A stretch of 64,000 bases of DNA from an uncultured Planctomycetota bacterium (GCA_963823665.1 CAWGMQ010000006.1:1344001-1408000), one strand, 5' to 3'; shown: positions 25,208 to 53,378, counted from the first letter of the stretch. Translations and numbers: made by a program. Notes: generated from the sequence alone by a model not told the origin.

Positions 25208-27955
25208 CTACTTCCCCTCCAAACCCCGATTCCTGATATCCCGCGCCTTCTTCACCAACCCGGTGAATTCCTTCCTGTACCCCGACTCATCCCCCTCACT
25301 CACCTGCCCCGCAATCTCCAACACCCCATCAAACGTAATCGTCCCCTTATACTTCGAATCTCGCAGCAACATCCCGAACCCCGCAACCGCCGCCGCAAAC
25401 TTCAGGTCCCCTGAAGCCCGGCCAAAATCAACCCCTTCATCCACAACCGGGTACACCAAAGGCACGCTCTTATCCTCATTCGGCTTCTTGTACCGCAGAT
25501 TGACGACGAACGAGTTCGCTCGCCTGGGTTCCTTGCCGCTCTCGGTTTTCTTCGCGGCATCCTTCAAGGCGACCTCTCGCCCCCGTTCGCCCACCTTCGC
25601 CGGCACCAGCTCGTAAAGCGCCGTCACGTGATGCCCCGCCCCGATCTCCCCCGCATCCTTGGCATCATTATCGAAGTCTTCGTTCGCCAGCGCCCGATTT
25701 TCATAACCGATCAGCCGATATTCGGCCACTTGCGCCGGATTGAAGTCGACCTGGATCTTCACGTCCTTCGCGACCGTGACCAGCGTCGAGCCCATCTCCT
25801 TCACGAGCACCCGATAAGCCTCGTGCGGCGAGTCGATATACGCGTAGTGGCCATTGCCCTTGTCGGCAAGCTGCTCCAGCTTGGCATCCTTGATGTTTCC
25901 CATACCGAAGCCGAGCACGCTCAGAAAAACGCCCGATTTCGCCTTTTCAGTGATCAGCTCCATGAGCTTCTTGTCATCGGTGATCCCGACGTTGAAATCA
26001 CCGTCGGTGGCCAGGATGACCCGATTGGTCCCATTCTTGATGAAGTTCTTGACGGCGACGTCATAAGCGAGCTGAATGCCCTCGCCGCCATTCGTCGAGC
26101 CGCCGGCCTTCAGCCGGTCGATCGCCGTCATGATCTCGGCCTTCTTCTGGCAAGACGTCGACGGCAGAACGAGCCCCGCTGCTCCCAGGTAGACAACGAT
26201 CGCCACGCGATCATTTTCGCCGAGCTGCTCGACCATTCTCTGCAAGCCCCACTGCACCAGCTTTAGCTTGTCTGGCTCGTCCATCGACCCCGAAACATCC
26301 ACCAGGAACACGAGATTGCTGGCCGGTCGGTTGGCCTGATCAATCGGTTTGGCGGCAATGCCGATGCGCGCCAGTCGGTGCGCAGCATTCCACGGGCACC
26401 CGCTCACCTCGACGTGCACCGCAAACGGCTGATCGCTCGCATCGGCCGCCGGCGAATCGTGATAAGGGAAGTAGTTGAGCATCTCTTCAATGCGAACGGC
26501 ATCACGCGGCGGCAGCGATTCCTGGTTCAAGAACCGCCGGATCATCACGTAGCTCGCCGTATCGACGTCAATCGAGAACGTCGACTGCAGCGCCTTGGCG
26601 GTGAGCAAGAACGCGTTCTCGACGATCGGCGCAAACGCCTCTGCATCGGCGACGACTTCTTGCTCGATCCTCGCTTCGACTTGCTGCTCGGGTGCATTCT
26701 GGGCGAGATTCTGTTGCACATCCTTGACTTCCTTGTCGGTCGGTTTCGGCAACGCGGCATTGCCTTCGTTTGCCGGCGGAGTGAACCCCAGTTGAGTCTT
26801 CTGGCCAGCCCGCGCGGGATCACCGCCGTTTTGCATTTGCCCGGCAGGTGCCTTCGCGAGCGTCAGGTCCTCTCGAAGCTCCGCACCAGGCGCCCGAGCG
26901 GCGGGTGCCGCGGCCGCCGGGGCTGCCTCGGTTGCCTTTCCGGTTGCTCCGGCCGATAGCGGGCTCGCGCCTTGCTTCGCTTCTCCCGCCAATCGCTCAT
27001 CAGTCGGCGCCGCGGTCGGCGTCGGACGTGACGGAGCGCCTTGCTTGGCCTTGGCATCGAGCGGCGCTTCGAGGTCGTTCAATTCCGCCAGGCGCTTTCG
27101 CCGGCGGAGAGCAAGCGAGTCTGCCCCCGGTGCGGCCGCAGCCGGGTACACTGAACGCTCGGCGGGCGCCGAAGCTCCCGTCACCACGGTAGCGCCTGGT
27201 GCCGGCGGCATCGCCGGACCAGAACCGCCCGCTCCGGTCTGGCTCACTTTCCCGAGTTTCCTGGCGACCAGCGCGCGCTGCTCGCCACGGTCAGTTGCTC
27301 CGCCCATGCCGCCGCGCCGACCCTCGGGGGCAATCGCCGTCACATCCGCCTCCTCTCCGTATGCATCGACAAACCCTTCTCCCGCCGGCTTGTTCGCGGC
27401 GCCCTGGCTCACTCCGAGATCTCGAGACACGCCCTCGCCCGTCTCGGTGGAGGCGCGTAAGGCCACCGCCGCCGGCGCCGCAGCCGCCGTCTTTTCCGAA
27501 ATACGATTCCGGACACGCTTCGCCTGCGGGGCGGGCGCGGTCGATCGTTCGCCCGGTTCTGCGAGGGCAATCCGATCCAATTCTCGGCGCTGCTTCACAT
27601 CCACACGAACAAACGGCACGACCGCCAGCCCCACAAGCGCCAGCACCGCCGCCGCGATCAAATTCATCCGGATTGCGGGCCGTCCCCACCACCGCCGTCG
27701 CGGCGCATCCGAATTCGCCACGATCTCGCCGGCAACATGATGGTTGTTGATCCCGGCCTTCTCCACCGGATGATGCGCTCGACTCTCCGCTTGAAGCTGT
27801 TCGGAGAGCCACCGCGTCGTCAACCGGATCTCTTCGACCGCCTCGCGACAGTCGGCCGAATCGATGAGATTTGCCTCGACCACCGCGCGCTCGGTGGGAT
27901 CGAGCTCGCCAAGCACGAATGCCGTCAGCCGGGGATCGTTGGGGTCAATGTTCAT
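25208..27955 (-). CDS. Anti-sigma-like N-terminus + TM + YfbK-type VWA/DUF3520 protein (copy 2)
   Basis: LTAFVLGEL...C N-terminus, TM helix, [68 protein letters not shown]. Confidence 0.9.
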   Translation of the reverse strand: MNIDPNDPRLTAFVLGELDPTERAVVEANLIDSADCREAVEEIRLTTRWLSEQLQAESRAHHPVEKAGINNHHVAGEIVANSDAPRRRWWGRPAIRMNLIAAAVLALVGLAVVPFVRVDVKQRRELDRIALAEPGERSTAPAPQAKRVRNRISEKTAAAAPAAVALRASTETGEGVSRDLGVSQGAANKPAGEGFVDAYGEEADVTAIAPEGRRGGMGGATDRGEQRALVARKLGKVSQTGAGGSGPAMPPAPGATVVTGASAPAERSVYPAAAAPGADSLALRRRKRLAELNDLEAPLDAKAKQGAPSRPTPTAAPTDERLAGEAKQGASPLSAGATGKATEAAPAAAAPAARAPGAELREDLTLAKAPAGQMQNGGDPARAGQKTQLGFTPPANEGNAALPKPTDKEVKDVQQNLAQNAPEQQVEARIEQEVVADAEAFAPIVENAFLLTAKALQSTFSIDVDTASYVMIRRFLNQESLPPRDAVRIEEMLNYFPYHDSPAADASDQPFAVHVEVSGCPWNAAHRLARIGIAAKPIDQANRPASNLVFLVDVSGSMDEPDKLKLVQWGLQRMVEQLGENDRVAIVVYLGAAGLVLPSTSCQKKAEIMTAIDRLKAGGSTNGGEGIQLAYDVAVKNFIKNGTNRVILATDGDFNVGITDDKKLMELITEKAKSGVFLSVLGFGMGNIKDAKLEQLADKGNGHYAYIDSPHEAYRVLVKEMGSTLVTVAKDVKIQVDFNPAQVAEYRLIGYENRALANEDFDNDAKDAGEIGAGHHVTALYELVPAKVGERGREVALKDAAKKTESGKEPRRANSFVVNLRYKKPNEDKSVPLVYPVVDEGVDFGRASGDLKFAAAVAGFGMLLRDSKYKGTITFDGVLEIAGQVSEGDESGYRKEFTGLVKKARDIRNRGLEGK

Positions 27956-28542: not shown

Positions 28543-31314
28543 TCACGGCATGTCTCGCACCGTTCGTTCCCGGATTTCCTTCGCTTTCCTCACCAACCCC
28601 ATGAACTCTTTCCGATACCCCGATTGATCACCCTCACTCACCGTCCCCGCGATCTCCAGAACCCCATCAAACGTAATCGTCCCCTTATACTTCGAATCTC
28701 GCAGCAGCATCCCGAATCCCGCAACGGCCGCCGCAAACTTGAGATCTCCGGATGCCCTCCCAAAATCAACTCCGTCATCCACAACCGGGTAGACCAGAGG
28801 TTCGCTCTTATCCTCATTCGGCTTCTTGTACCGCAGATTGACGACGAACGAATTCGCCCGCCGCTGCGCTTTCCCCTCTCGCTTCACCGCGACATCCTTC
28901 TGTGCAACCTCCTGCCTTCCTCCGTCCGCCTTCGCCGGCACCAGCTCGTAAAGCGCCGTCACGTGGTGCCCCGCTCCGATCTCCCCCGCATCCTTGGCGT
29001 CGTTGTTGAAGTCTTTATTCGCGAGAGCCCGGTTTTCGTACCCGATCAGTCGATATTCGGCAACCTGATCGGGAATGAAGTCGACCTGGATCTTCACGTC
29101 CTTGGCGACCGTGACCAGCGTCGCGGCCATACCAGTCACCAGCACCCGGTAAGCCTCGCGGGGCGAGTCGATGTAGGCAAAATGACCGTTCCCTTTGTCA
29201 GCGAGCTTCTCCAGCTTGGCGTCCTTGACGCCCATCCCAAACCCCAGCACGCTCAGAAAAACGCCCGATTTTGCCTTCTGCGTGATCAGCTCGACAAGCT
29301 TGTCGTCGTCGGAAATGCCGACGTTGAACTCGCCGTCAGTCGCCAGGATCACCCGATTGGTCCCATTCTGGATGAAGTTCTTGGTCGCGATGTCATAGGC
29401 GAGCTGAATACCCGCCCCGCCGTTCGTCGAGCCTCCGGCCTTGAGCCGGCCAATCGCCGCCATCACCTCGGGTTTCTTCTGACAGGAAGTCGACGGCAGA
29501 ACCAACCCCGCGGCCCCCGCATACACGACGATTGCCACCCGGTCATTCTCGCCAAGCTGCTCCACCAGCCTTTGCAAGCCCCACTGCACCAGCGGCAGTC
29601 TGTCGGGCTCGTCCATCGACCCCGAAACATCCACCAGGAACACGAGATTGCTGGCCGGCCGATTGGCCTGATCAATCGGTTTGGCCGCAATGCCGATGCG
29701 CGCCAGCCGGTGCGCAGCATTCCACGGGCACCCGCCCACCTCGACGTGCACCGCAAACGGTTGATCGCTCGCATCAGCCGCCGGCGAATCGTGATACGGA
29801 AAATAGTTGAGCATCTCTTCAATGCGAACGTCTTCACGCGGCGGCAGCGAGTCTTGCTTCAAGCACCGCCGGATCATGGCGTAGCTCGCCGTATCGACAT
29901 CGATCGAAAACGTCGACAACCGCTCCTTGCTCGTGAGCTGAAACGCGTTCTCCACGATCGGCGCAGCCTCCTCGTCGGCAACGATTTTTTCTTTCTCCTC
30001 GCCTCCGACTTGCTGCGCGGGTAGTTTCCGGGCCAGCTTTTGTTCGAGATCGGCAAGTTCTCCGTCTTTTCCTTTACTGGGCGGAGCGCCACCCGCTCCG
30101 GCCGCCGGAGCCTTGAACGCGAAGTCTGGCTCGCCTTCTCGCCCGCGAGCACTGCCTTTTTGCAGTTCCCCCAGCGGCGCCTTCCCGGCCGCCATTCCAT
30201 CATGCAGCCCCTCCGCGATCCGCGCCTCCTGGCCACGCGAGGCATCTGCCGGCATGGGGGCTGGCACGGCTGCTGCCGAGCTCTCGCCCCGCTGCGGTTC
30301 GCGGGAAAATCCCTCAGCAGCCTTGGTCGCGCCCGGCACCGCACCTGCCGGAGCGTCTTTCTTATCCTCCGGTGCCGCACCTCGCATAGCGCCTTTGATA
30401 TTCTTTGGCTGCGGCTGCCCTCGTGAGTCGCGCGATTCCATCGCGCGACTCTGCGTGCGCAGGGCAACCAACGCTTCCCGCCGTGCAGCCGGAGCTGACC
30501 TCTTGGCCGCCTCGCCGGACGGTTGTGCTCCCGCCGCAACAACCCGTGGTGCCGGCGGCGTCGCCGGCGCGGATCCGCCCGCGACCGCGAGTTTCTTGCC
30601 GGTCATCGCGGGCTGCTTGCTCCTGTCAGCCCCTCCGCCCATGCTCCCGAGCTGACCTCCCCGGGCAGCAGCCGGCGCATCCACGTCCTGAAATGCAAAC
30701 TCGGCCGGTTGGGCCGCCGGCTTGTTCGGGGCGCCTCGGCTGAGTCCAAAACCTCGGGACACGCCCTCGCCCCTGTCGTCCGCGGTCGATAACGGCACGG
30801 CCGCCGGTGCCGCGGCCAGAGGCGACGCAGGAGCAGCCGCCGGAGCGGGCGCCGCCTCGCCGAATCGATCATAGTCACGATTCGTCTGGTCCTCGATGGC
30901 TCGTTTCCCACTCTTCTTGAGGTGCGCAACGCGCTCGAGTTCTCGGCGCGGCTGCACATCCACACGAACAAGCGGCACGACCGCCAGCCCCACAAGCGCC
31001 AGCACCGCCGCCGCGATCAAATTCATCCGGATTGCGGGCCGTCCCCACCACCGCCGTCGCGGCGCATCCGAATTCGCCACGATCTCGCCGGCAACATGAT
31101 GGTTGTTGATCCCGGCCTTCTCCACCGGGTAATGCGCGCGACTCTCCGCTTGAAGCTGCTCGGAGAGCCACCGCGTCGTCAACCGGATCTCTTCGACCGC
31201 CTCGCGACAGTCGGCCGAATCGATGAGATTTGCCTCGACCACAGCACGCTCCGTGGGGTCGAGCTCGCCAAGCACGAATGCCGTCAGCCGGGGGTCGTTG
31301 GGGTCAATGTTCAT
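28543..31314 (-). CDS. Anti-sigma-like N-terminus + TM + YfbK-type VWA/DUF3520 protein (copy 1)
   Basis: Same architecture and motifs as 25208-27955. Confidence 0.9.
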
Positions 31315-36269: not shown

Positions 36270-39200
36270 CTAATCCCTGCGGGGAGGAACTTCACCCGCG
36301 GTTGGCCGGTCAGGCGCAGCGGGTGCGACTTCGGTCTCCGGCCAGTCCGGACCCAAGGGCGATGGATCGCCTTGGCAGATAAAGGCGCCCCAGTAGAAGG
36401 GATCGGGGTATTTGGCCTTCATTGCGAGCTGTGCGTGGCGCAACGCCTCGGCGCGGCCTTGGCCGTTCATGAGACGTCGGTAATAGTCGACCATCAACTC
36501 CTGTGTCTGCTCGTCGGGCACTTTCCACAGGCTCATGACCAGGGTCTTAGCCCCTGCCAGGACGAACGCGCGGCGCAGCCCGAAGACGCCTTCGCCGGCG
36601 TGGACCTCGCCGAGGCCCGTATCGCAGGCCGAGAGCACGACTAGCTCGGTGTCCAAGAGGTTCACCCCCGTGACATCCTCTGCGGTCAGCAGGCCGTCCT
36701 CGGCCTCCTCGGGCGCAGTGCCGGCCTTGAGGAAAGTGTTGGCGCCAGCCAGCGCCAGGCCGGAGCGGAGCATCGGGTTCTCCATCTGCGGGCCGGAGAG
36801 CCGACCTGGTGCGAATCCCTCAGCGGCGAACCCGACTGGGTCGACTTCAAGGCTCGGCGCCGCCTGCCGTAGCTCGGCCTGCTGGTCGGGCAGGAAGAAC
36901 CCGTGGGTAGCCAGGTGGAGAATGCGGGGCGAGCGGCATTCGGCCTTCAGCCGGCCCTCCGTCGCCGCGGTGCCCAGTACGGGCCGAATGCCGAGCAGCG
37001 TGGCGACTCGCTGGCCCTCGGCCCGTGTGCCCGGCAGGCGGTGGAAGTATTGTCCGACGTGCTGGCGGTCCATGTCGCGCGAATGGCGGCCGATCGCGCG
37101 AGCTGCCCCGCCGAGGTCGGGCACGGATCGGACGTTCGCCTCGAGGTCGAAGTCCGGATCGGCGAACAAGAGGGGCGAGGCGGGAGCGCCGCTGGCCGCG
37201 ATCCCGAGCCGGAGCGCGTCGCGGCCGCAGCTCAAGTAGCTGATCTGATATCCGTCGATCAGGCGGCTGCCGTTATCGGTGGGCAACACCTCGAATGGAA
37301 GCAGCGACAGGCCGCCGTCGGGGGCGATCAGGAGGCTTGTGCGGCCGGACAGCGCCGACAGCAGCCGGTCAAAAACGGCAGCGCGGAGCTGGCTGCCGAG
37401 CCGCTCCGCCGATGCAGGTGAGGGCTCCTCACACGATTTGGTCATGTCCCGGCAGGCGCGGTCCTCATCCGTACCGGTGACGCCGGCGCGGAAGTCGGCA
37501 ATCATGCGGTCGATCGGCTCGGCATGGCCAAGGTCGATCATCCGCACGTCGTCCGAGTTGCCCGCGCAGGACGAAAGCCACGTAGCGTTCCGGCTGCCAC
37601 AACTTCTCGCCGCGCGCCGGCCTCGCACGGAAGTCGTATACGGGGAACCGGACGAACTCGACGAGGGCGGCGCCCTCGGGCAAGGCCAGAGCCACGGCTT
37701 GGCGGTCGGCGGCGCGGAGCTGCCGCTCGAGGTTCATCTCGGGGACATGCCGGGCCAGCTCGGCTTCCTGTCGTTCCCGCTCGGCCGACCACTCGGCGAG
37801 CCGCCGCCCGTGGGCCTCGCGCCCCTCCGGCCCGGGCCCCGCCAGCGTCGCGCGGGCGACCTGCATCCGCAGGGCGCCCAGCTCCTCGAGCTTCGGTCGA
37901 AGGGCGGGGTACTTGCCTCCCAAGACGGCGTCGCGCTGCGTGGCTGTCGCCTCGGCGCCGATCGCTTTGCGGCTCAGGACGAGGTCGAGAACCATTCGGA
38001 TCGCGGCAGGCGAGTCACCCAGGTGCTTGAGGACGAGGGATAAGGTTTCGTACAGCTTGCTCAGCTTGGTCAGCAGGAACGCGATCCTCTGCCGTTCGGA
38101 GCCGATGCAAAGGATCTGCCCGATCATCCGGTCGTCAATTGCCGCGACCTCTTGAAGCGCGGTCAGTGCCGCCGCGGCTCGGTCGGTGGCTGACAGTATC
38201 AACGCAAGGTTGGTCAGCGCGGCGGCGTAGTTGCGGTGCGTCGCGCCGAGGGCGGTGCGGGTGAGCTCGACGCCCTTTCGGCACAAGGGCAGCGCGGCGG
38301 CGTAGTCCCCTATCCCCTGGTACACGCTCGCCAGGTTGTGCAGGCAGCGGGCGTAGTCGGGATGGGCCTCGCCGAGTGCGGCGTGGGTGATCTCGCGGCC
38401 CGCTCGAGCAGAGGCAGCGCGGCGGCGTAGTCACCCATGCCCTGGTGCACCGACGCTAGGTCATGCAGGCTGGCGGCATAGTCGGGGTGGCCCTCGCCCA
38501 GGGCGGCACGGGTGAGCTCGGCGGCCTCGCGGCACAGTGGCATCGCCGCGGCATAGTCCCCGATCCCTTGGTAGACCGAAGCCAGACTACGAAGGCTTCG
38601 GGCGTAGCCAGGGTGGATCCCGCCCTGAGCGGTGCGGGTAAGCTCGGCGGCCTTGCGGCACAGCGGCAGCGCGGCGGCGTAGTCCCCGATCTCATGGTAC
38701 ACCGCCGCCAAGGTACCCAAGCTCCAGGCGTAGTCGGGGTGGGCCTCGCCTAGGGCGGCGCGGGTGCACTCGGCAGCCCGCTCAAGCAGGGGCCGTGCGG
38801 CGGCGTAGTTGCCAATCGCCCAATGCACCGTCCCCAGGTTATGGAGGCACCGGGCGTAGTCGCTGTGGGCGTCGCCCAAGGCGGCGCGGGTGAGCTCAGC
38901 GGCCCGCTCGCGCAGGGGCAGCGCGGTGGCGTAGTCACCCATCCCCTGGTGCACCGACGCCAGGTCGTGCAGGCTGGCCGCATGGCAGGGGTGGCCCTCT
39001 CCCAGGGCGGCGCTGGTGAGCTCGCTAACCTTGCGGCATATCGGCAGCGCGCCGGCGTAGTTCCCAATCGCCCGGTGCGCTGCGCCAGGCTGTGCAGTGT
39101 CTCGGTGAACCAGGGGTGGCGCTCGCCCCAGCCGGCGAGGATGAGCTCGGCGGCCTGCTCGAGCAGCGGCAGCGCGGCGGCGTGGTCCCCCATCGCGCGG

Positions 39201-39496
39201 TGCACCTGCGCCAGGCTGTGCAGGCTACGTGCATATTCCGAGATTGAGAACAAGTATGCGAGCTCGCTAGAGCCGAATCGCTCTCGGCAGCGAACTATCC
39301 GGGGGTAGTCGGGGCCGTCGCCTCCGAATTGGAAGTGCGCCAGGTCCGCGGCCTGTTGAGCCAGCGGCAACGCCTCTGCCCATCGGCCCTGCGCCGATAA
39401 CGTCGCGACTGATCGTTTAAGCTCGAGCAGGAGCGACTCGGTCCTCTCCCCCGACGCCCCTCCCGCTCTGTTGGTGAAGGAATCGAACGGCGCCAT
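36270..39496 (-). CDS. TPR + CHAT (caspase-like protease) protein, several frameshifts
   Basis: 42-aa repeats (LG..HPDYA.SL..LA.V...GDYAAA.PL), then APDG.L..LPFE, LHLATHG (His), LSACDTG (Cys), MSLWKV, WGAF. Confidence 0.88.
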
Positions 39497-44480: not shown

Positions 44481-44500
44481 ATATCGCAGTGGGGTTGAGC

Positions 44501-44959
44501 ATGGGAAACGCTGTGAAGATCAGGGCGCTGACCGCTCCACCGGCTCCATTCGCCACATTTGACCCGGGCGAATACATGAGCGGATTGGACTTCTACGAAA
44601 CAGACAGCGCAATCAACGACCAGGATCGTGACGGCCTGGCGCAGTTCACACACTTCATTGCCTTCATTGCCCTCCAGGCAAACTCGAGCAAGTGGGCTGC
44701 GTCAATCGTGCCGCGGGGCTCGTTGGCTTATCGAGCTCTGGATTCACATTTCGGACACTTGAGCGGCTGGCGCGAACTCTCGGAGAATCACGGGTTGTCT
44801 TTTCGGCATTTGGCGAGCTTCCTGATGCAGGACTACCCCCCGCGTGCGCCAAAAGGTAAGCCGCCGAACCAGCCGGTGCAGCAAACGGCGACCACAATGC
44901 TGCTTCCCGGTCTCTCTCACGGTCCTCCTGACCCATCGACTCGTTTGGAAGTTCGCTGA
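44501..44959 (+). CDS. Hypothetical cassette-like gene reading through a broken attC
   Basis: Begins 25 nt after GTTAGAT; about 44708-44830 is duplicated at about 40337-40460. Confidence 0.5.
   Translation: MGNAVKIRALTAPPAPFATFDPGEYMSGLDFYETDSAINDQDRDGLAQFTHFIAFIALQANSSKWAASIVPRGSLAYRALDSHFGHLSGWRELSENHGLSFRHLASFLMQDYPPRAPKGKPPNQPVQQTATTMLLPGLSHGPPDPSTRLEVR
44863..44910 (+). mobile_element. Truncated attC (5' half)
   Basis: GCCGAAC-5 nt-GGTGCAGC, same layout as the intact site at 45434; no complementary arm. Confidence 0.55.
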
Positions 44960-45044
44960 TTGACCGGCCGACTTTGGCCCGTCATGATCAATGCGTTCGC
45001 GTGAGAGAATCACAAGTTCGGAGGCGCGAAGAAAAGGGGTTTGT

Positions 45045-45424
45045 ATGGAGCAGGTAGTTGGAATTGGCGGTGTATTCTTCAAAGCTCGCGATCCCAAGGC
45101 GCTCGCCGCCTGGTATCGCGAGCACTTGGGCGTGCCCGTCGAACCAGAGCAAACCTACGGGGCTTTCACGTCTGCCACGGCTGGAGAGCAGGCGGTTTGG
45201 TCTGCCTTCCCTGCCGACACCTCCTACTTTGGTTCGGGCACACAACCGTTCATGGTCAATTATCGCGTCCGGAACCTCGACGCCATGTTGGCCCAGCTCC
45301 GAGCTGCCGGGCGCAAGTAGACGACCGAGTCGAGGACTACGACTTTGGCCGGTTCGGCTGGGCGACCGACCCCGAGGGCAACCGATTCGAGCTATGGGAG
45401 CCGCGCCCACCCGGACAGGGGTAA
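45045..45424 (+). CDS. VOC/glyoxalase family protein (frameshift near 45312)
   Basis: VVGIGGVFFKARDPKALAAWYREHLG, FMVNYRVRNLDAML, FGRFGWATDPEGNRFELWEP. Confidence 0.92.
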
Positions 45425-45433
45425 GCGCACCGC

Positions 45434-45531
45434 GCCGAACCAATGGCTGAAGCTGACCGGGGCCGCCATCCTGGTTTTTCGAGCTTCAAAGTTCTTGCAG
45501 GCGGCCCCGGCAGCTTAGCCGAGCGTTCCGG
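45434..45531 (+). mobile_element. Integron attC recombination site
   Basis: R'' GCCGAAC, 5-nt spacer, L'' GCTGAAGC, long stem, L' GCTTAGC, 5-nt spacer, GTT; two unpaired bases in the left arm; starts 9 nt after the VOC stop. Confidence 0.85.
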
Positions 45532-45591
45532 AGGCGCGCGTGAGAATTGCATGCAACCCGCTGCGAGACGATTCAGCGGTTCTCAATCGCG

Positions 45592-45939
45592 CTACGGGAT
45601 CTCCACGCCTCGGGGCGCCGTGGTAAGGTGCTTGCGGCCGGGCTCGAGGGCGGCGACGAAGACCGAAAGCGCGGCCTTCGAATCGCCACCTCCGCAGGAG
45701 AAAATATCGAGAGCGATATATCGGTGCTCGGGGTAAGTGTGGAACGCGATGTGAGACTCCGAGAGGAGGAGGTAGCCCGTGAGGCCACCCCCTTCGAAGC
45801 GGTGCAGCACCGGAGGGCCGATCGGCTTCATCCCACCCCGACGCGCCGCTAGGTCGAGACAATCGGCCAGCAGCCCGCCATCGACCAGACGGTCGGAGGC
45901 GACGTCGTAAAGGTCGGCAAGCAAGTGTTGACCGATCAT
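45592..45939 (-). CDS. speD: Pyruvoyl-dependent S-adenosylmethionine decarboxylase family protein
   Basis: G.HLLADLY, H.F.GGGLTG.LLLSESHIAFHTYPE, LDIFSCG; strong AAAGGA RBS. Confidence 0.93.
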   Translation of the reverse strand: MIGQHLLADLYDVASDRLVDGGLLADCLDLAARRGGMKPIGPPVLHRFEGGGLTGYLLLSESHIAFHTYPEHRYIALDIFSCGGGDSKAALSVFVAALEPGRKHLTTAPRGVEIP

Positions 45940-46022
45940 CGACGATTCCGTCCTTTCCTCTTCCGGTCAGGAAATGCTCCAGGCAACCATCAGGCCGGCG
46001 GCAACGAATCTCGTGTGCAGCA

Positions 46023-47081
46023 TCACGGAGCGAGCCGACTGGTGGGTCCCTCCTCGACTGCCAGGTGCTGCAGGAAGGGAAGCATCGCATTGGCGATCCG
46101 GTCGTAGCTGTACAGGTCGTGTGCACCGGCGTAGACCCGGTTCGCGCCTCCAAATCGCCGCTTGAACTGCGAGAGCCGGCGGTACCTGTGGTCGGCCCGG
46201 TCGCCATGGGCGTCGATCCCATAAAGGTCGTACGTGGCGCAGCCGCGATCGATCGCCGAGGCCATGATGGCGGACTGAAGGGCGGAGGGCGCCATCACTT
46301 CGCGGTGTTCCCGGCGGCTGCCGCCGTAAAGGTACGTGGCGCGGGGGCCGAAGAAGACCGCGATGGCAGCGGCCAGGGTCTCGCCCCGGTACGTCGCGAA
46401 GAAGGCCGCGGCCATCCGGGCGGGGAATAGGATTGCCGCCAGGTCCATCAGGTAGCAAAGCGGCTCCGCGGCGAACCCCTGACGAGCAGCCGTCTCGACG
46501 AGCAGCGGATGGAACCGCGCGGCCGAGGCCGGGTCGGTCGTCACCTCGATTTCGACCCCGTGCCGCCTGGCGAGCCCGACATTGTACCTGCCTTTTGACG
46601 TCATCCGGATGAGGACGCCGGCCATCCCACCCGACAGGTCCACTTCGTTCGTCTCGAACGGGTCGAAATCGACGGGTGCGCGGACGAACCCACGCAGATA
46701 AGGCGGCAGTGGAGGAGCGAGACGGGGCTCGATCCGCCAGAGGATGCTGTCCGTCCGCCGACGCAGCCGGCACGCCTCGCGCCGGATCGCGGCGAAGAGT
46801 ACGGCGGCACGCTCCGGGTCATGCCAGGGCACGAGCGGACCTCCGGGCGTGACCAGGATGCCCGGCCCGTCGAGCGAGCGGGCGGCCTGGAAGATCGCCC
46901 CGCCCTCGATCCGGCCGTCGCGAAACCAGAGCCGCGGATAGACCTCGACCCCCTGGCGCGCCTGGAGCTCGGCCCAGGTCAGCGATTGCATGAACCCGCA
47001 TGCGGGGTTCTCACGCACCGCCCTTTCCCAGGCGTCACGGTACTCGTCGCTGAACTTGGTGCATTGGAGCGGGCCGGACAT
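46023..47081 (-). CDS. FemAB/FemX-type tRNA-dependent peptidyltransferase (double GNAT)
   Basis: FMQS..WAE, GGP, RIEP, KGRYNV.LA.RHGV, ETA.RQGF, ATYLYGGS, ALQ..IM..A..RGC..YDLYGI, FK.RFGG. Confidence 0.88.
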   Translation of the reverse strand: MSGPLQCTKFSDEYRDAWERAVRENPACGFMQSLTWAELQARQGVEVYPRLWFRDGRIEGGAIFQAARSLDGPGILVTPGGPLVPWHDPERAAVLFAAIRREACRLRRRTDSILWRIEPRLAPPLPPYLRGFVRAPVDFDPFETNEVDLSGGMAGVLIRMTSKGRYNVGLARRHGVEIEVTTDPASAARFHPLLVETAARQGFAAEPLCYLMDLAAILFPARMAAAFFATYRGETLAAAIAVFFGPRATYLYGGSRREHREVMAPSALQSAIMASAIDRGCATYDLYGIDAHGDRADHRYRRLSQFKRRFGGANRVYAGAHDLYSYDRIANAMLPFLQHLAVEEGPTSRLAP

Positions 47082-47093
47082 GGGACATCACCC

Positions 47094-48569
47094 CTACCGC
47101 GGCGTGCGGTAGTAGTAGTAGCGGCCGTTGTAGTAGCAATAGTAGTAGTGGTAATACGGATCGGAATACCAGTAGTAGTAGGGAGTGGTCACGGTCCCCG
47201 CACCTCCGGACACGTACCCGCCGCGCTGCTGCATCGGATACGCGCCACCTCCGAAATAGGTTCTACTTCCTGGGGGACTTCCGTGCCCCCCCTTGGCGTA
47301 GGCGGCCGTGGGCATGGCGGTCTGCGCGAGGACGAGTACGAGCATCAATACGCTAAAGAATCGCCAACCCCAGGTCGTGAAGTTGGCCACGGGATCCTCA
47401 CCTCGCGACAGGAACTCGCGGAACCGCTTCAGTTCGGCCACGAGCCGCCCGGGCAAGGCGGCGGCGCGGCGGAGCAAAGCCGAGATCAACCGCCCTAGAT
47501 CGAGCGTGCTTGCGGCCTGAACCAGGTGGCCCGCCCACTCCATGACCAGCTCGCGGGTGACGATCCGGTGACCCAGCGGCACGCACATCAAGAGATCGTC
47601 GATCCCGGTACCGGGCTGGCGATCGAGCCACCCTTTCAGCTTCAGGCTCGGGACGGTCGCGGTGGCCGGCTCAGGCGGCGGGAACGGGTCGTCGAACCCG
47701 AGGAAGCAAACCGTCTCCTCGGCTTCTCCCGGCGCGATCGTGGTCGCATCGAGCAGATACTCATAAAGCGTCCGCCCCGCGTCCGATGCGGGTCGGATCG
47801 TCGTCCGCTGGTCGGCCTGTTGCCGGGGGAATTCGAAGCAGTCCACGAGCCCGGGCCCGTCAAGAGTTCGCACGCCCTCTGGAATGGGTACCGAACGCAT
47901 CTCAACAGGTGTGATGGCTCGATCCGAGGCGAGGAAGAACCCCCAGACGCCATACCCCAGCTCGGCGAAGCTGGGGACGCGCGACCGGCCCGGGAGCGCG
48001 GCGAGGCCGGCCGAGCGGAGGCTCTGGTAGACGCACCAGTACGCCGCGGGGGTCTGGTCCGGCGAGAGCCCATTGAGGGCAAGGATGCCCCCGGGCTCCA
48101 GGTGCGCGCGCAGCTTCTGGAACCAGTCGCGTGTGAACAGACCGCAGTCGGCCAGGGTGCTGGGACAGGTCAGGTCCGAGAAGATCGCGTGGAACGAGCC
48201 GGCCTTCGCGAGCGCCTCCCGGACGTCGGCGACCTCCACGGCGACCCGGTTATCGGCGAGGCTCGACCCGTTCCAGGGGGCGAGCTCGGTGCCCGCAAGG
48301 GCCAGGACCTCCGGGTTGTAGTCGATCACGCGGACCGACGCGACTCCCTCATGCCGAAGCAGCTCGCGGACGAGCAGGCCGTCGCCGCCGCCGAGCACGA
48401 GCAGGTTAAGCGGCCCCTCGAACCTCGCCCGCGCGGCGAGCAGGGCGGGATTGGCGAGCCGCTCGTGGTAAATCGCTTCGTCGTCGGTGTCGAATTGAAG
48501 GTCGCCGCCAAGGTAAAGCCGCAGCCCTCCAGCGCGTCGCTCCAGGACGAGCGTTATGTGCAAGAACAT
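47094..48569 (-). CDS. Spermidine synthase-like aminopropyltransferase with a C-terminal TM/signal-like helix and Tyr-rich tail
   Basis: LYLGGDLQF...DE.IYHE, LVLGGGDG, IDYNPEV, SDLTCP, L.PGG, VPSF..WGF; GAAGGAGG RBS. Confidence 0.88.
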   Translation of the reverse strand: MFLHITLVLERRAGGLRLYLGGDLQFDTDDEAIYHERLANPALLAARARFEGPLNLLVLGGGDGLLVRELLRHEGVASVRVIDYNPEVLALAGTELAPWNGSSLADNRVAVEVADVREALAKAGSFHAIFSDLTCPSTLADCGLFTRDWFQKLRAHLEPGGILALNGLSPDQTPAAYWCVYQSLRSAGLAALPGRSRVPSFAELGYGVWGFFLASDRAITPVEMRSVPIPEGVRTLDGPGLVDCFEFPRQQADQRTTIRPASDAGRTLYEYLLDATTIAPGEAEETVCFLGFDDPFPPPEPATATVPSLKLKGWLDRQPGTGIDDLLMCVPLGHRIVTRELVMEWAGHLVQAASTLDLGRLISALLRRAAALPGRLVAELKRFREFLSRGEDPVANFTTWGWRFFSVLMLVLVLAQTAMPTAAYAKGGHGSPPGSRTYFGGGAYPMQQRGGYVSGGAGTVTTPYYYWYSDPYYHYYYCYYNGRYYYYRTPR

Positions 48570-48999
48570 ACATCTCCTCCTTCCGCGTTAGTTCCGATCA
48601 AACCCAATCCAATTACTGTGCGTTGCGAAAACAACTGATGTGGCCTCCTCGGCCTCCTCGGCGGAGACGAAGAGCGGTCCCCGATCGAGGATGGCCGTCG
48701 CGCAGGAGGCAGAGCCGGCGTGTCCCCCGGAACAGCACAACCCAACCCCCGGGGGTGGAGTAACGAAGGCGGGTCGAGGAGCAAGAGGAAGAACAGGATC
48801 ATCGGAGGGACGCCGGGTTCGCCAGGCTGATCACCCTCCCTACAACCAGTTCGTCCCGCGTCGGTGTTTTGTGCGAGTGTTTCGCGAGATTTTCATTCTC
48901 AAGGCTTAAGTTCCGGGGACACCAGACGTAATTCTCACAGCCAGCATGAATGAGCTTCGCCGAGGTGGCGGCGGCCGCGCTGGCATACGACACGAACGG

Positions 49000-49113
49000 T
49001 TAGCCTCTGCCCCGCACCAATTGCATGATCGCCGCCCTGACATCCGGCGTCACGTAGTGCCATTTCGCGACCAGTTCCTGCAGTGCCTCCTCACTGCAGA
49101 CATCGTGATTCAT
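49000..49113 (-). CDS. 37-aa small ORF (L..LV..W....PDVRAAIM.LVR)
   Basis: Below the ORF-track cutoff; resembles a short motif often seen beside planctomycete integrated elements (from memory). Confidence 0.35.
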   Translation of the reverse strand: MNHDVCSEEALQELVAKWHYVTPDVRAAIMQLVRGRG

Positions 49114-49703
49114 CGGATTGGCTCGGAGAGTTGCCCTTGGTCGAGTCAGGCGCGAATGGCACGCTCACTGGCATGGTTTTGTCCAGAGCTATTCGGCTCG
49201 CATGAAGCATGCATTTATGCGTCTCTCTCACGATTTGAAACGACAGATCCAACCCCCGATTTCGTGCGTCGTTGATAGCAGTACGCGCAGCCGCTGCCCG
49301 ATCCCACGCATGTCGATTTCAGTGGTGAATTCCCGAAGGGCGTTTTTCCCGAGCAATTCGTCGCTCACCCTCCAAACGACCGCGCCGTCGCGCGGCCCGC
49401 TGCGTCGATCTGGGCAAAAAATGCACCCTCCTCGCTTTGTTTGCCCGTATCCCCGACGCGCGTCCGTGTCCGTGCCGAGCAACGCAAGCTCTGCCGGAGT
49501 CCAACGAAGGAAAAACGCGGGAACCCCGATCCGCTCTCGCTTGGCGTGAACGCAGGATGGAGTCCTTCCGAAGTTGAGTTTAGCGCCTGCGACCCCCCTG
49601 TGCCGATTCGATGGGCGTCGTGCATCGGCATTTCGCAGATTTGCGCCTGCGCATGAGCCCGAATTCCGAGGAGACCATTCGCCTCACACTCAAATTCCAT
49701 CGC

Positions 49704-52700
49704 CTATCTCACGACCGTGGAGAACGGTTTTTCGCTCGACTTGCCGTCGGCGGCGACGATGCCCGCTTCCACCACGACGTCCACGGCACCCTTGAAGGGT
49801 TTTTTGAGGTTGATCGTCACCGATTCCGCGTGGATGTTGTAGGTGACGAGACTGAACTTGACCGGTTTGGTATAGACCGTCTTGTGATGCTTCTTCACCC
49901 CCGAGAACAGGCGGTAGAAGGCCATGTTGGTCGCGGAGCCGAAGTCGAGCGGCTCGTTGAATCCGACGGTGATCGAGGTCAGCCCCTTACTGGAATGGCT
50001 CACTTTGACGCTCCCTGTGACTTGCGGGGGCGGCTGGTTGGGGGGAGGCGGCGGAGGGGGCGGCGGCGGTCCCAGCACGGTAATCGAAGTCGGAGTCGAC
50101 GACACTCCTCCTTCGTCTGCGGAAGCCGTGATCATGTAGTTGCCCGGATTGTTCGTTGACGCGCCAGGGCGCTCGATCAACAGGCCGGAGAAGTCGGCCA
50201 CGCCGTTATGGGCCATCATCGAGACAACGCCTGTGTTGGAGCTCCCCAGTCTGGCGCCGTTCATGTTGCCTGTCAGTGACAAGGATACAATGCCGTCGAA
50301 CGCGGTATCGACTTTCCCCTGAGTTTCGACGGCCACGTCGATGCTGAAGGTCGCACTCGTGGAAAGCGGGCCCGTCGGAGACTCGATGATTGCGAGCTGC
50401 ACGGTCTGCTGGGTGCTGCTCCCGAAGGTAACCGGCCCGCTGGTTGGGCCGGCCGATCCGGGGCCAGGGCTGGCGCCGGGAAGGCCGGCAGCGCCGGCCG
50501 TGGCAGGGCTGCCGGCCGGCCCGGCATCGCCATTACCCGCCTGTCCGCCTTCTCCGGTGCCGCCGGCACCGCCGGCGCCGCCAGCGCCGGGTCCGCCGGC
50601 ACCGCCGATCGGGCCGGCTCCGCCGCCACCACCCCCGGCGCCGCCCACGCCGCCGATGAGGGTGCCGCCTGTCTGCGAGGGGCTGCCCGGCGGGCCCGTG
50701 CCGACTATTACGCTGACGCTGAGAAGTGTGAGCTGGCCGCCCGTCACATAAAAGTCGCCACCTTCGGCAGCCCCTCCCGCGCCCCCGGTACCGCCGGCGC
50801 CGCCATTCCCTGAGGCGCCTGCGATTCCGCCTGCGCCGCCGCGGCCGCCATTGCCGCCGGCGCCACCGGTCTCGCCGTTGCCGCCAGCCCCGCCGATCCC
50901 GCCCTTGCCGCCCCGAGCAAGTCCCGTGACTGCGCCATACCCCGCACCGCCGGAGGCACCGGTCAAGCCTTGGCCGCCGGCCCCGCCCTGGGCGGTCTCG
51001 CTGGTGAAGTTGAAGTTGTCGAGGGTCAGTGTGACCGAACCGCCGGAGACCGCGACTCCGCCGCCGGCGCCCGTTCCGCCCGCACCCCCCGCGCCGGCGG
51101 GGCCTCCGCTGCCCCCGGCTCCGGCGGCGGCCGCAAATCCGCCGTTGCCGCCACTGCCGCCGTTGCCGGCGGGCCCGGTCGCACCGGCGCTCCCAGGTGT
51201 ATGACCGGGGCCGCCCGCTCCGCCGGCCCCGCCGCTGCCGCCATGTTGGCCGAAGGGCCCGCCGTTACCGCCGGCGCCCTGGCGACGACCACCGCCGCCC
51301 TTGCCCGCGTCCCCGCCCCGAGCGTGGTCACCCATGAGGAGCGAGGTGTTCAGGTTCAGCGTGCCACCGGCCACGAAGACGGCCCCCCCGGCTGCCATTC
51401 CGCCGTTGGCGCCTGCGCCGCCACCGCCGGCGTTGCCGCCGTTGCCGCCTCGACCGGCCGCGCCGCCGGCCGCGCCTGCGCCACCGTTACCGCGGTAGCC
51501 GCCAGTGCCGCCAGCGCCGCCTGGGCCGCCGCTGCCGCCGGCGCCGCCGGCGCCGCCCGAGCCAGGCACTCCACCGTTGCTGCCGTGACGGATGTATGAG
51601 CGCGAGCCGGAGCCAGGGCCGCCCGCGGCCGAATTATCCTGGAATTCGGCCTCGCTCTCGCTGACGGCGACCTGCAGGGCGAGAGTCCCGGCCCCAACAT
51701 AAAGTCCACCGCCTTGGGCGGAACCGCCGTTGCCGTTTCGGCCCCCGTTGTTACCCACACCGCCACCGCCGCCGGCACCGCCGGCGCCACCGCCGCCGCC
51801 CTTGCCGCCAGTGCCGTTGGTCGCAGCCGCGCCGGCACCGCCGGCGCCACCGTTGCCGCCGTTGCCCGCAGTTCCGCCGCCGCCGCCAGCGCCGCCGCCA
51901 CCGGCGGTCCCAGCTTCTGCGCTATTGGCGATGATGCCGCCGCCCGCGATCGTGAGCTCGCCCCCCGCGATGTAGACGCCCCCTCCCCACGCATTCGCAC
52001 CATTCCCCCCCTCGCCGGCCTTGCCGCCGTTGCCGCCGTTCACTCCGTTGCCGCCGATTCCGCCCATACCACCCGGCCTGGCCCCAGACGCGGCGTTGCT
52101 GCCGTTGCCTCCATTTCCGCCGTTGCCGCCCCCGCCGCCATCTCCGCCAGCCCCGCCTGCGAATCCAAGCGCACCATTCCCAATGATCGTCGAGTTTGTC
52201 AGGATGAGCCGGCCGGCCGCCTGATAGATGCCACCGCCGGCACCCGACCCTCCGGCACCACCGTTGCCGCCGGCACCACCCGTGGCGCCGGGCTCTCCGG
52301 GTCCGCCATTCATCCCGTCGCCGCCGCCGCCGCCGTACCCGCCGGTACCTCCATTAGCCCGGTTCTCTTTAACCAACGAGCCCGTCAAGGTCAGTTGGCC
52401 GGCCGCCTGGTAAATGCCACCGCCAGCAGCCGATCCTCCGGCGCCGCCGGCGCCACCTGACTCCACAGGCTTGCCCACACCGCTGCTCGTCCCGCCGCCG
52501 CCGCCGCCGCCGTTACCTCCTTTGGCCAAGTTAAAACTAACGGCTGAGCTGACCAGGCTCAGTTGGCCGGCCGCCAGGTAGATGCCGCCCCCTTCCGCGT
52601 TGCCGCCGTCACCGCCGCGACCTCCGGGTTGACCGCTATCTCCCAGCGCGCCCTTGGCGCCGGCGGCTCCCGACGCCCCGTTCGAACCAAGATTTGCATT

Positions 52701-53225
52701 GCTGAGCGTCACTTGCCCGCCATCGATCAAGATCCCGCCCCCGAGCGCCGCAGTGCCGCCGAGCACGCCGCCGTCATGCGCAGCGCCATCCGTGATTGTC
52801 ATGTCTTTGAGCACGACTGCCGTGGTCGCCGAACCGGTCCCGACGATCTCGAAGATCCGCGTGTTGAGCGCGGCCGAGCCCGATATGACTGTGCTCAAAG
52901 GCGACGTCCCCTGGCCCTCGATCGTCAATGTCTTCGGAGTGCTCGTCGCGTTGGTGATCTCCAGTTGGCCGGCCGCCGTGTCGGTGAGTGTGATCGAAGC
53001 CGACAGCTCGATGATGTTATTGGTGAAGCTGTTGGTGTCCGCCGCGGCGATGTCGGCGCGCAGGGCGCTCTCGGTCGCAACGTTCGCGAAGATGTTCGGG
53101 TTCAACACCGTGCGCGTCTCCAGACTCTCGGGCATCAGCCGGAGTGATCGCCGGCGCCGTTCATCGAGGTGTCGAGAGGATCGTTTCGCCGTGAACAATG
53201 CGAGCCGCCGCGTCTTGTTCAACAT
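49704..53225 (-). CDS. Secreted Gly-rich (PGRS-like) beta-helix protein, paralog of 13497-19784
   Basis: Leader RRRRSLRLMPESLETRTVL; shared DGG.LGG.AALGGG.LIDGG.VT; GGAGG tracts; poly-Pro linker; shared C-terminal domain. Confidence 0.85.
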   Translation of the reverse strand: MLNKTRRLALFTAKRSSRHLDERRRRSLRLMPESLETRTVLNPNIFANVATESALRADIAAADTNSFTNNIIELSASITLTDTAAGQLEITNATSTPKTLTIEGQGTSPLSTVISGSAALNTRIFEIVGTGSATTAVVLKDMTITDGAAHDGGVLGGTAALGGGILIDGGQVTLSNANLGSNGASGAAGAKGALGDSGQPGGRGGDGGNAEGGGIYLAAGQLSLVSSAVSFNLAKGGNGGGGGGGTSSGVGKPVESGGAGGAGGSAAGGGIYQAAGQLTLTGSLVKENRANGGTGGYGGGGGDGMNGGPGEPGATGGAGGNGGAGGSGAGGGIYQAAGRLILTNSTIIGNGALGFAGGAGGDGGGGGNGGNGGNGSNAASGARPGGMGGIGGNGVNGGNGGKAGEGGNGANAWGGGVYIAGGELTIAGGGIIANSAEAGTAGGGGAGGGGGTAGNGGNGGAGGAGAAATNGTGGKGGGGGAGGAGGGGGVGNNGGRNGNGGSAQGGGLYVGAGTLALQVAVSESEAEFQDNSAAGGPGSGSRSYIRHGSNGGVPGSGGAGGAGGSGGPGGAGGTGGYRGNGGAGAAGGAAGRGGNGGNAGGGGAGANGGMAAGGAVFVAGGTLNLNTSLLMGDHARGGDAGKGGGGRRQGAGGNGGPFGQHGGSGGAGGAGGPGHTPGSAGATGPAGNGGSGGNGGFAAAAGAGGSGGPAGAGGAGGTGAGGGVAVSGGSVTLTLDNFNFTSETAQGGAGGQGLTGASGGAGYGAVTGLARGGKGGIGGAGGNGETGGAGGNGGRGGAGGIAGASGNGGAGGTGGAGGAAEGGDFYVTGGQLTLLSVSVIVGTGPPGSPSQTGGTLIGGVGGAGGGGGGAGPIGGAGGPGAGGAGGAGGTGEGGQAGNGDAGPAGSPATAGAAGLPGASPGPGSAGPTSGPVTFGSSTQQTVQLAIIESPTGPLSTSATFSIDVAVETQGKVDTAFDGIVSLSLTGNMNGARLGSSNTGVVSMMAHNGVADFSGLLIERPGASTNNPGNYMITASADEGGVSSTPTSITVLGPPPPPPPPPPNQPPPQVTGSVKVSHSSKGLTSITVGFNEPLDFGSATNMAFYRLFSGVKKHHKTVYTKPVKFSLVTYNIHAESVTINLKKPFKGAVDVVVEAGIVAADGKSSEKPFSTVVR

Positions 53226-53244
53226 CCCGGTAATCCTGTGAATG

Positions 53245-53378
53245 AGGGGCGCCAACCGGCTGTCGAGCCGGGCGGCGACCATCCCAAGTAGCCGGTTGCG
53301 GTGCCGCGCCAGAAGTAGCTCTAGCTCCGGCCCGCGGCCGCCAGCCTTGCAGAGTAGTTCCTCGGTTTCCGGATCGTC
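53245..53378 (-). pseudogene. 5' remnant of a planctomycete-type ECF sigma factor
   Basis: DPETEELL..AG....LLARHRNRL..MVAARLDSRLA with no start codon; in frame with the downstream gene. Confidence 0.6.

Follow-up and report, generated by a model that had tools for sequence, protein, structure and literature searches.

Many bacteria are said to keep an S-adenosylmethionine (SAM, AdoMet) decarboxylase (AdoMetDC) for a use outside polyamine synthesis and alongside a membrane-bound spermidine synthase-like (SpdSyn-like) protein, as reportedly set out by Li, Kurihara, Kim, Liang and Michael in 2019 (Biochem J 476:2579). Here we describe a compact relative of such systems, a cassette of three minus-strand genes located in a 64,000-nucleotide stretch of DNA from an uncultured soil Planctomycetota bacterium (GCA_963823665.1, CAWGMQ010000006.1:1344001-1408000; hereafter the window), which encodes a SpdSyn-like protein, a FemX-like protein of the FemAB family and the AdoMetDC homologue SpeD. 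Two kinds of related operons are described in the accessible part of Ravi et al. 2024 (PMC11237479): PspA-linked operons with a fusion of seven transmembrane (TM) segments to a SpdSyn-like domain (7TM-SpdSyn-like), DUF350 (YjfL), a lipoprotein and DUF4178, and operons combining a glutathionylspermidine-synthetase-like ligase, AdoMetDC, a polyamine oxidase, DUF350 and DUF2617. The same text refers to Li et al. 2019 on 'aminopropylation of other substrates' and makes no mention of a FemX-like gene.

The cassette shares with the Li-type system an AdoMetDC linked to a membrane-bound SpdSyn-like protein putatively acting on a substrate other than putrescine, as well as DUF350 in its cyanobacterial relatives. 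The Li-type protein, however, carries an N-terminal multi-pass domain, whereas the window's SpdSyn-like protein (P0001) starts with its catalytic domain at residue 1 and possesses a single C-terminal helix (residues 403-424); the cassette further adds a Lys-Gly motif, a low-complexity tail and an obligatory FemX-like neighbour, in a genome without a DUF350 match. In cyanobacteria the operon order is DUF4178, SpdSyn-like, FemX-like, DUF350, and DUF4178 and DUF350 were found in 38 and 36, respectively, of the 80 related loci analysed below. These flanking genes tie the pair to the published but unsolved AdoMetDC/membrane-SpdSyn-like system and recall the CesT/Tir-PspA operons (the 'second group' in the accessible part of PMC11237479), from which our loci differ in that inspection of the window and of a set of FemX-linked loci showed neither PspA nor CesT. 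One PspA-DUF4178-DUF350-TM-SpdSyn-like operon was confirmed, in locus L092 of a cyanobacteriota genome. The E. coli yjf-type operons (the 'third group' in the same accessible part) likewise associate an amide-forming enzyme with polyamine-type genes, DUF350 and DUF2617, the last being carried by the Armatimonadota relatives of the cassette (7 loci). There the amide is made at the expense of ATP by an ATP-grasp ligase, whereas in the cassette a double-GNAT enzyme would draw on aminoacyl-tRNA; by analogy, the FemX-like protein may be the amide-forming counterpart of the glutathionylspermidine-synthetase-like ligase of the DUF350 clusters. Since neither DUF350 nor DUF4178 was found in the window's genome, the link to the published orphan system rests on the relatives, and the Isosphaeraceae form is a stripped-down version of it.

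The module is real and strongly conserved, and it is a variant of a known but unsolved system. An initial annotation of the window had presented it as a candidate undescribed system and as coupling activities that no characterised pathway joins. The second statement holds; the first had to be narrowed, because the guild of SpdSyn-like, AdoMetDC, DUF350 and DUF4178 genes was already noted as an orphan in the accessible part of PMC11237479. What seems to be new here is the FemX-like partner and the C-terminally anchored form of the SpdSyn-like protein, neither of which was found in the literature searched, which leaves out most subscription papers; the accessible text of a 2026 review of aminoacyl-tRNA-dependent enzymes (PMC12945691) contains no occurrence of 'polyamine' or 'spermidine'. 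We propose, with a probability of about 0.6, that the conserved unit performs two successive reactions at the cytoplasmic side of the membrane: SpeD would supply decarboxylated SAM (dcSAM), the anchored SpdSyn-like enzyme would move its aminopropyl group onto a non-putrescine amine at the inner membrane face, and the FemX-like enzyme would then use aminoacyl-tRNA to acylate an amine on that molecule. The three genes, separated by 12 nucleotides (nt) between the SpdSyn-like and FemX-like genes and by 83 nt between the FemX-like and SpeD genes, lie exactly where the initial annotation had placed them as a tightly packed group (lengths in amino acids, aa):

47094-48569, minus strand: SpdSyn-like gene (P0001, 491 aa), Pfam Spermine_synth
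46023-47081, minus strand: FemX-like gene (P0002, 352 aa), Pfam FemAB and Acetyltransf_6
45592-45939, minus strand: SpeD gene (P0003, 115 aa), Pfam AdoMet_dc

Linkage of the three genes across phyla

In order to assess how general this gene association is, we searched contigs of one genome per species with an alignment of 20 FemX-like proteins (A1). The search yielded 517 confirmed stretches, and all counts out of 80 rest on the best 80 of these 517. According to their record labels, 43 of the 80 are cyanobacterial, 10 belong to Obscuribacterales/Melainabacteria, 11 to Armatimonadota, 8 to Planctomycetota, 3 to Chloroflexota and one each to Rokubacteria and Elusimicrobia, while 3 are unlabelled. 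Mapping by tblastn and open reading frames (ORFs) revealed a SpdSyn-like gene in 73 of these FemX-like loci, placed directly upstream on the same strand in 72; five of the seven loci without it offer less than 1.3 kb of upstream sequence. The association was then assayed in the reverse direction on 201 Cyanobacteriota genomes drawn evenly across the phylum. A1 matched 10 of these genomes (11 copies), and full-length matches to the SpdSyn-like family alignment A2 (E <= 1e-164, extending to model position 449 at least) fell in the same 10 genomes, again as 11 copies. All 11 copies were adjacent same-strand pairs whose matched segments lie 44-428 nt apart. Neither a FemX-like nor a full-length SpdSyn-like gene was found in the remaining 191 genomes, some of which hold a canonical SpeE (frames of about 283-330 aa). 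This two-way adjacency, together with the absence of either gene elsewhere, marks a strict module of two genes, patchy and accessory in its distribution, and their linkage is far beyond chance.

SpeD is a more variable companion. ORF clustering located it at most 6 kb away in 32 of the 80 loci. Three layouts occur: SpeD precedes the pair in the same orientation, follows it in the opposite orientation or, as in the window, comes directly after it in the same orientation. The initial annotation had proposed a neighbourhood search for SpeE, FemAB and SpeD and had held that a lack of synteny would speak against a common system; with the SpdSyn-like/FemX-like association in 73 of 80 loci and in every cyanobacterial pair, and SpeD joining it in these 32, synteny is what was observed. 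Among the Cyanobacteriota, a SpeD homologue was present in 10/10 pair-bearing genomes versus 155/191 of the others. The eight best matches to our SpeD alignment (A3) form a divergent subtype, all of them in pair-bearing genomes and seven at 0.9-1.7 kb from the pair; the gap in E-value that sets this subtype apart arises partly by construction, because A3 is weighted towards it. The subtype has the central motif D-I-H-x-C-D-Y-x-x-D-N instead of D-x-F-[ST]-C-G and was seen only in pair-carrying genomes, usually less than 2 kb from the pair (G221, G121, G082, G157, G148, G041, G061 and G067; loci L011, L015, L026 and others).

The window's own SpeD, P0003, passes both the Pfam AdoMet_dc threshold (95.1 bits for a cut-off of 25) and that of the NCBIfam equivalog TIGR03330 (91.3 bits for a cut-off of 75.65). 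Its residues S62, H67 and C82 are invariant in 19 of 19 SpeD sequences, and their Thermotoga maritima counterparts S63, H68 and C83 are given as the self-processing serine and the catalytic histidine and cysteine in the accessible part of PMC10407285. P0003 is thus predicted, from these conserved positions and scores, to be a class 1b pyruvoyl AdoMet decarboxylase homologue with dcSAM as its putative product, in a family where some homologues act on Arg or Orn instead of SAM.

Two further observations were made during these searches. In L036 an RRXRR/HNH endonuclease gene adjoins the FemX-like gene. A third SpdSyn-like class of about 515 aa, with the catalytic domain in its C-terminal half, gave about 29 matches among those listed, in as many Cyanobacteriota genomes (including G054, G108, G159, G075, G081, G072, G069, G045, G123, G099 and G114); it adjoins a PMT/GT87-like glycosyltransferase of about 910 aa (L090:5776-10025, minus strand, and matching sites in L091 and L093-L096), and a SpeD domain was also found in these genomes, within a frame of 363-402 aa.

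Catalytic domains, membrane anchor and acceptor

P0001 was recognized by Pfam PF01564 Spermine_synth (62.4 bits, cut-off 22.9). Its scores fall below the NCBIfam cut-offs of the SpeE type (TIGR00417, 80.4 of 249.55 bits; PRK00811, 85.1 of 260; PRK01581, 114.7 of 537; PRK03612, 181.8 of 472), the best match, PRK03612, being the membrane-fused type. The AlphaFold2 (AF2) model is confident for residues 1-300; between residues 11 and 270, most blocks of ten have a predicted local distance difference test (pLDDT) score of 85-97, and one block has 78. Foldseek aligned it best with the Thermus aminopropyltransferase (1uir/3anx) and thermospermine synthase (6bq2), with TMt values of 0.70-0.79, and both the N-terminal beta-hairpin domain and the Rossmann fold are present. 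The model thus confirms the predicted aminopropyltransferase fold of P0001. Conservation was evaluated on A2, an alignment of 27 SpdSyn-like proteins whose record labels point to six phyla or more, which delineates the following parts of the protein:

47670-48569, minus strand: catalytic domain (aa 1-300), with residues invariant in A2
47298-47363, minus strand: C-terminal membrane helix (aa 403-424), hydrophobic, helical at residues 399-418 in the AF2 model and aligned in 27/27 sequences
47289-47312, minus strand: juxtamembrane motif P-[DE]-x-[AVL]-[FY]-[AG]-K-G (aa 420-427), from alignment A2
47097-47288, minus strand: low-complexity Gly/Ser/Tyr-rich tail (aa 428-491), disordered, pLDDT below 50

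In all 27 sequences Q25, F26, D30, E31, Y34, H35, the GGGDG stretch at 60-64, D83, N100, D132 and T134 are invariant, and GGGDG and D132 align with GGGEG and with the D-L of the solved aminopropyltransferases. The acidic residue of GGG[DE]G and the first aspartate of D-x-x-D-P have roles in dcSAM binding and catalysis. These residues bear on the idea that the SpdSyn-like domain no longer transfers aminopropyl groups and is now a methyltransferase or a binding module, or provides the FemX-like enzyme with a scaffold. Weak methyltransferase matches in Pfam and the altered canonical motif would fit such a change of function, but the acid of GGG[DE]G, the Q-F pair, D-E-x-x-Y-H-E and D132 are shared with solved aminopropyltransferases and invariant, and the repeated recruitment of SpeD makes sense only if dcSAM is used; we therefore regard it as hardly tenable. 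A sequence of aminopropylation and tRNA-dependent aminoacylation, as advanced in the initial annotation, fits the catalytic residues conserved in the two enzymes.

The altered motif itself is informative as to the acceptor. The closest solved homologues, which are also the best structure and sequence matches of the catalytic domain (the Thermus triamine/agmatine aminopropyltransferase and the plant and bacterial thermospermine synthases), are soluble enzymes of about 300 aa with D-L-[AT]-D-P, whereas the family shows D-[LF]-T-x-P, x being non-acidic in 27 of 27 members (C in P0001; A, C, Y, F, V or S in relatives), and a C-terminal extension of at least 190 aa with a membrane helix. The second aspartate of D-L-[AT]-D-P helps to hold the far amine of the diamine substrate, and its family-wide loss argues for an acceptor other than putrescine. 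In P0001 a helical linker joins the catalytic domain to the membrane helix; a search of the ESM Atlas with residues 230-430 gave no usable match. The helix runs into the juxtamembrane motif, P-T-A-A-Y-A-K-G in P0001, whose K426 never varies in A2 and whose G427 and P420 show a conservation of 90% or more; with small residues at -1 and -3 and a proline at -6, this motif would fit a signal-peptidase-I-type site. The tail that follows differs between lineages: Tyr-rich in Isosphaeraceae, it consists of a Ser/Gly/Tyr loop and a second hydrophobic helix in Cyanobacteria and is replaced by an extra domain of 200-450 aa in Armatimonadota and Obscuribacterales.

These features allow the proposed pathway to be compared with its simplest chemical alternative, the synthesis of a free aminoacyl-polyamine, in which a soluble tri- or tetra-amine would be built from a cellular diamine and capped with an amino acid by the FemX-like enzyme, yielding a small-molecule analogue of glutathionylspermidine. 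The nearest solved folds, which belong to enzymes of triamine, agmatine and thermospermine metabolism, would suit it, and so would the glutathionylspermidine-synthetase-like ligase of DUF350 clusters (accessible part of PMC11237479) and the acylation of small amines by FemX-like enzymes in natural-product pathways (accessible part of PMC12945691). On the other hand, the non-acidic fourth motif position in all 27 members disfavours a free diamine as substrate, a membrane helix and an extracytoplasmic-looking tail, neither of which a soluble pathway would need, are common to all family members, and membrane proteins occur among the conserved partners, namely DUF350 and, at a single locus, LPG_synthase_TM. 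We consider a free product unlikely. Rather than a free diamine, the acceptor is probably something associated with the membrane, for instance the head group of a lipid or an envelope precursor linked to a lipid. In a Herpetosiphonaceae copy, a gene for LPG_synthase_TM, a lysylphosphatidylglycerol-synthase-type, flippase-like protein, directly follows SpeD (L024:9276-10379, plus strand), a single hint that points to a lipid.

The second enzyme, P0002, was identified by Pfam PF02388 FemAB (94.6 bits, cut-off 24) in addition to Acetyltransf_6. The A1 profile matches solved FemX structures end to end (6snr, E 4.7e-33; 4ii9, E 5.2e-28, profile positions 13-339), and P0002 has the double-GNAT architecture without the coiled-coil insert of FemA type. 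The cassette protein thus resembles FemX of Weissella viridescens (FemX_Wv) and of Staphylococcus aureus in its end-to-end homology, its F-K pair and the lack of this insert, but differs from them by its partner, an aminopropyltransferase homologue instead of cell-wall genes, and by its score of 52.9 bits for the 500 required by the FemX equivalog NF047883; it scored 18.7 of 260.35 bits against the PEP-CTERM FemAB family TIGR03019. K36 and R211 of FemX_Wv, which we take to be residues binding UDP-MurNAc-pentapeptide, align with Q40 and E206 of P0002. The pair F306-K307 is invariant in the 20 sequences of A1 and aligned with the F-K pair of FemX_Wv, whose Lys305 is described as catalytic in the accessible part of PMC12945691. 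P0002 thus keeps, as judged from this alignment, the catalytic lysine (K307). An obligatory partner of this type suggests that an amide bond would be formed from aminoacyl-tRNA and hence that the chemistry would take place on the cytoplasmic side. Both enzymes would then act on one molecule, with the aminopropyl step probably preceding the aminoacyl step.

A different acceptor for the two reactions could be a lysine of a protein or peptide, namely K426 of P0001 itself or a lysine of a separately encoded micro-protein resembling its tail, which would be aminopropylated and then aminoacylated to give a branched modification. The pair K426-G427 is conserved in all 27 sequences in the midst of a freely drifting tail. 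Moreover, in the PspA-DUF4178-DUF350 operon of L092, a 79-aa micro-ORF (L092:4891-5130, plus strand) lies between a 200-aa gene and the TM-SpdSyn-like gene and shows the same layout: its membrane helix is N-terminal, an A-x-A site is present, and the Gly/Tyr/His-rich tail ends in a lysine. This likeness to the P0001 tail is one of composition only, however, and the juxtamembrane motif may be a mere processing or anchoring signal. The topology also argues against it: both catalytic domains should be cytoplasmic, because aminoacyl-tRNA is required by a FemX-type enzyme and no N-terminal signal precedes the SpdSyn-like domain, whereas K426 is expected beyond the membrane helix. A lysine acceptor is therefore quite improbable.

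Lateral movement and genomic surroundings

The cassette had been assigned to an accessory region, and its distribution bears this out. The FemX-like gene is present in 2 of 41 genomes of the lineage, that of the window (G000) included, and was not found in a genome of the same genus (G001, 84% complete). Nucleotide homology to eight loci from Isosphaeraceae/Planctomycetota metagenome-assembled genomes (MAGs) is confined to about 45540-48907, at 79-94% identity and between unrelated flanks; the homologous span comprises the three genes and a 340-nt leader:

48570-48907, minus strand: conserved upstream leader/promoter region, 81-92% nucleotide identity to the eight Isosphaeraceae/Planctomycetota MAG loci

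The leader homology ends at about 48907, and several loci (L003, L004 and L010) carry an insertion of about 300 nt at 48640-48644. With their counterparts in G012, which belongs to another genus, the cassette proteins share 89-94% identity. By comparison, PurA is 79% (G021) and 76% (G022) identical and UppS 80% (G021 only) in other genera, and the same-genus values are 94% for PurA and 95% for UppS; this baseline was taken from G021 and G022 because neither PurA nor UppS was found in G012, which is 60% complete. Finally, in L003, again from another genus, a Tn5/IS4-like transposase gene (Tnp_DNA_bind and DDE_Tnp_1; L003:2296-3438, minus strand) lies about 1 kb upstream of the cassette. Taken together, the confined homology, the presence in 2 of 41 genomes, the high identity to G012 and the transposase of L003 suggest that the cassette moved laterally in recent time, the baseline stemming from G021 and G022 and not from G012 itself. 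No flanking repeats were found at the ends of the cassette.

These results bear in turn on the textbook interpretation, in which the genes have independent functions, SpeD and the SpdSyn-like protein making ordinary spermidine and the FemX-like protein adding an amino acid to peptidoglycan precursors. The classical roles of all three Pfam families are in its favour, as is the public annotation of the relatives' FemX-like protein as a lipid II glycyltransferase. But if the roles were unrelated, one would not expect 11 of 11 copies to be adjacent in both directions of search and neither gene to be found in the other 191 cyanobacterial genomes; the cassette moves as a unit between differing flanks, and an occurrence in so few genomes of the lineage does not correspond to housekeeping polyamine synthesis. 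In addition, the SpeE and FemX equivalog cut-offs were both failed, and no recurrent peptidoglycan genes appeared in the neighbourhoods. Independent functions are thus very unlikely.

The genome (16.46 Mb in 12 contigs, 91.9% complete) holds its only AdoMet_dc (PF02675) match and its only FemAB match in the cassette. Four further Spermine_synth matches lie in frames of 780-899 aa (C4:2959318, C7:994395, C7:234810 and C3:152944; L083 and L085-L087). Contigs from RNA libraries (four metatranscriptomes from two studies, at least 88% likeness) cover 45474-48898 and hence all three genes, with records spanning both the SpdSyn-like/FemX-like and the FemX-like/SpeD junctions, which shows that close relatives occur in RNA libraries. 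None extends beyond 48899, which is not evidence of a transcript end. In 7 of 8 Isosphaeraceae junctions a stop codon (TAG or TAA) still separates the SpdSyn-like from the FemX-like gene; in the eighth (L005) the stretch is shifted. An 861-aa fusion ORF noticed in L006 proved to be an alternate-frame artefact.

Scans of the surrounding sequence gave few matches. The leader has no Rfam match and no credible ORF, an Rfam scan of 44500-50000 returned a single sub-threshold chance match, promoter and terminator scans stayed at background level, and no tRNA genes were found in the whole window. The 82-aa ORF at 48554-48802 matched neither Pfam nor NCBIfam, and no Pfam families were recognized in the other flanking ORFs (44988-45443, 48946-49275 and 49118-49549). 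Elsewhere in the window, all on the minus strand, we noted two neighbouring paralogues of about 920 aa with vWF_A, VWA and YfbK_C domains (25208-27955 and 28543-31314) and a CHAT-domain protease-like gene followed by three TPR-repeat ORFs that resembles a conflict or signalling system (36270-39496). Two long ORFs have an unusually high G+C content (73-74%), one of 2095 aa with Calx-beta and Big_13 domains (13497-19784) and one of 1192 aa with a sub-threshold pectate-lyase-like match alone (49704-53282).

Weight of the evidence and biological meaning

A number of observations weigh against a coupled pathway of the kind proposed here. At the level of the loci, 48 of the 80 have no SpeD in the fetched range, L036 and L069 hold the FemX-like gene without a SpdSyn-like gene despite 6 kb of upstream sequence, and the gene order is rearranged in L055. 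A fused SpdSyn-FemX protein was not found in a search of homologous proteins for longer forms, which is weak evidence. The SpdSyn-like or FemX-like frame is broken in the Isosphaeraceae MAG loci L004, L005, L008, L009 and L010, which could be due to sequencing error or to decay. As for the proteins, P0001 lies under every NCBIfam equivalog cut-off and the FemX-like protein under that of FemX, while DUF350 and DUF4178 have no match in the window's genome at its 91.9% completeness. The RNA-library contigs are no proof of a single transcript, since such libraries can hold DNA.

The proposed pathway nevertheless gives the cassette a particular place within the family. The Isosphaeraceae form is self-contained: it consists of three genes, would provide dcSAM itself and dispenses with DUF350 and DUF4178, which makes it the smallest expressible unit of the system. 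There is an outside chance that it reveals a new kind of post-translational or envelope modification, in which dcSAM would donate an aminopropyl group to a lysine and aminoacyl-tRNA would next donate an amino acid, the best candidates being K426 and the lysine of the tail-like micro-protein; if true, this would name the acceptor of the whole orphan AdoMetDC/membrane-SpdSyn-like system. More generally, if the product is an aminopropyl-aminoacyl adduct, the cassette would encode the first pathway joining dcSAM and aminoacyl-tRNA chemistry.

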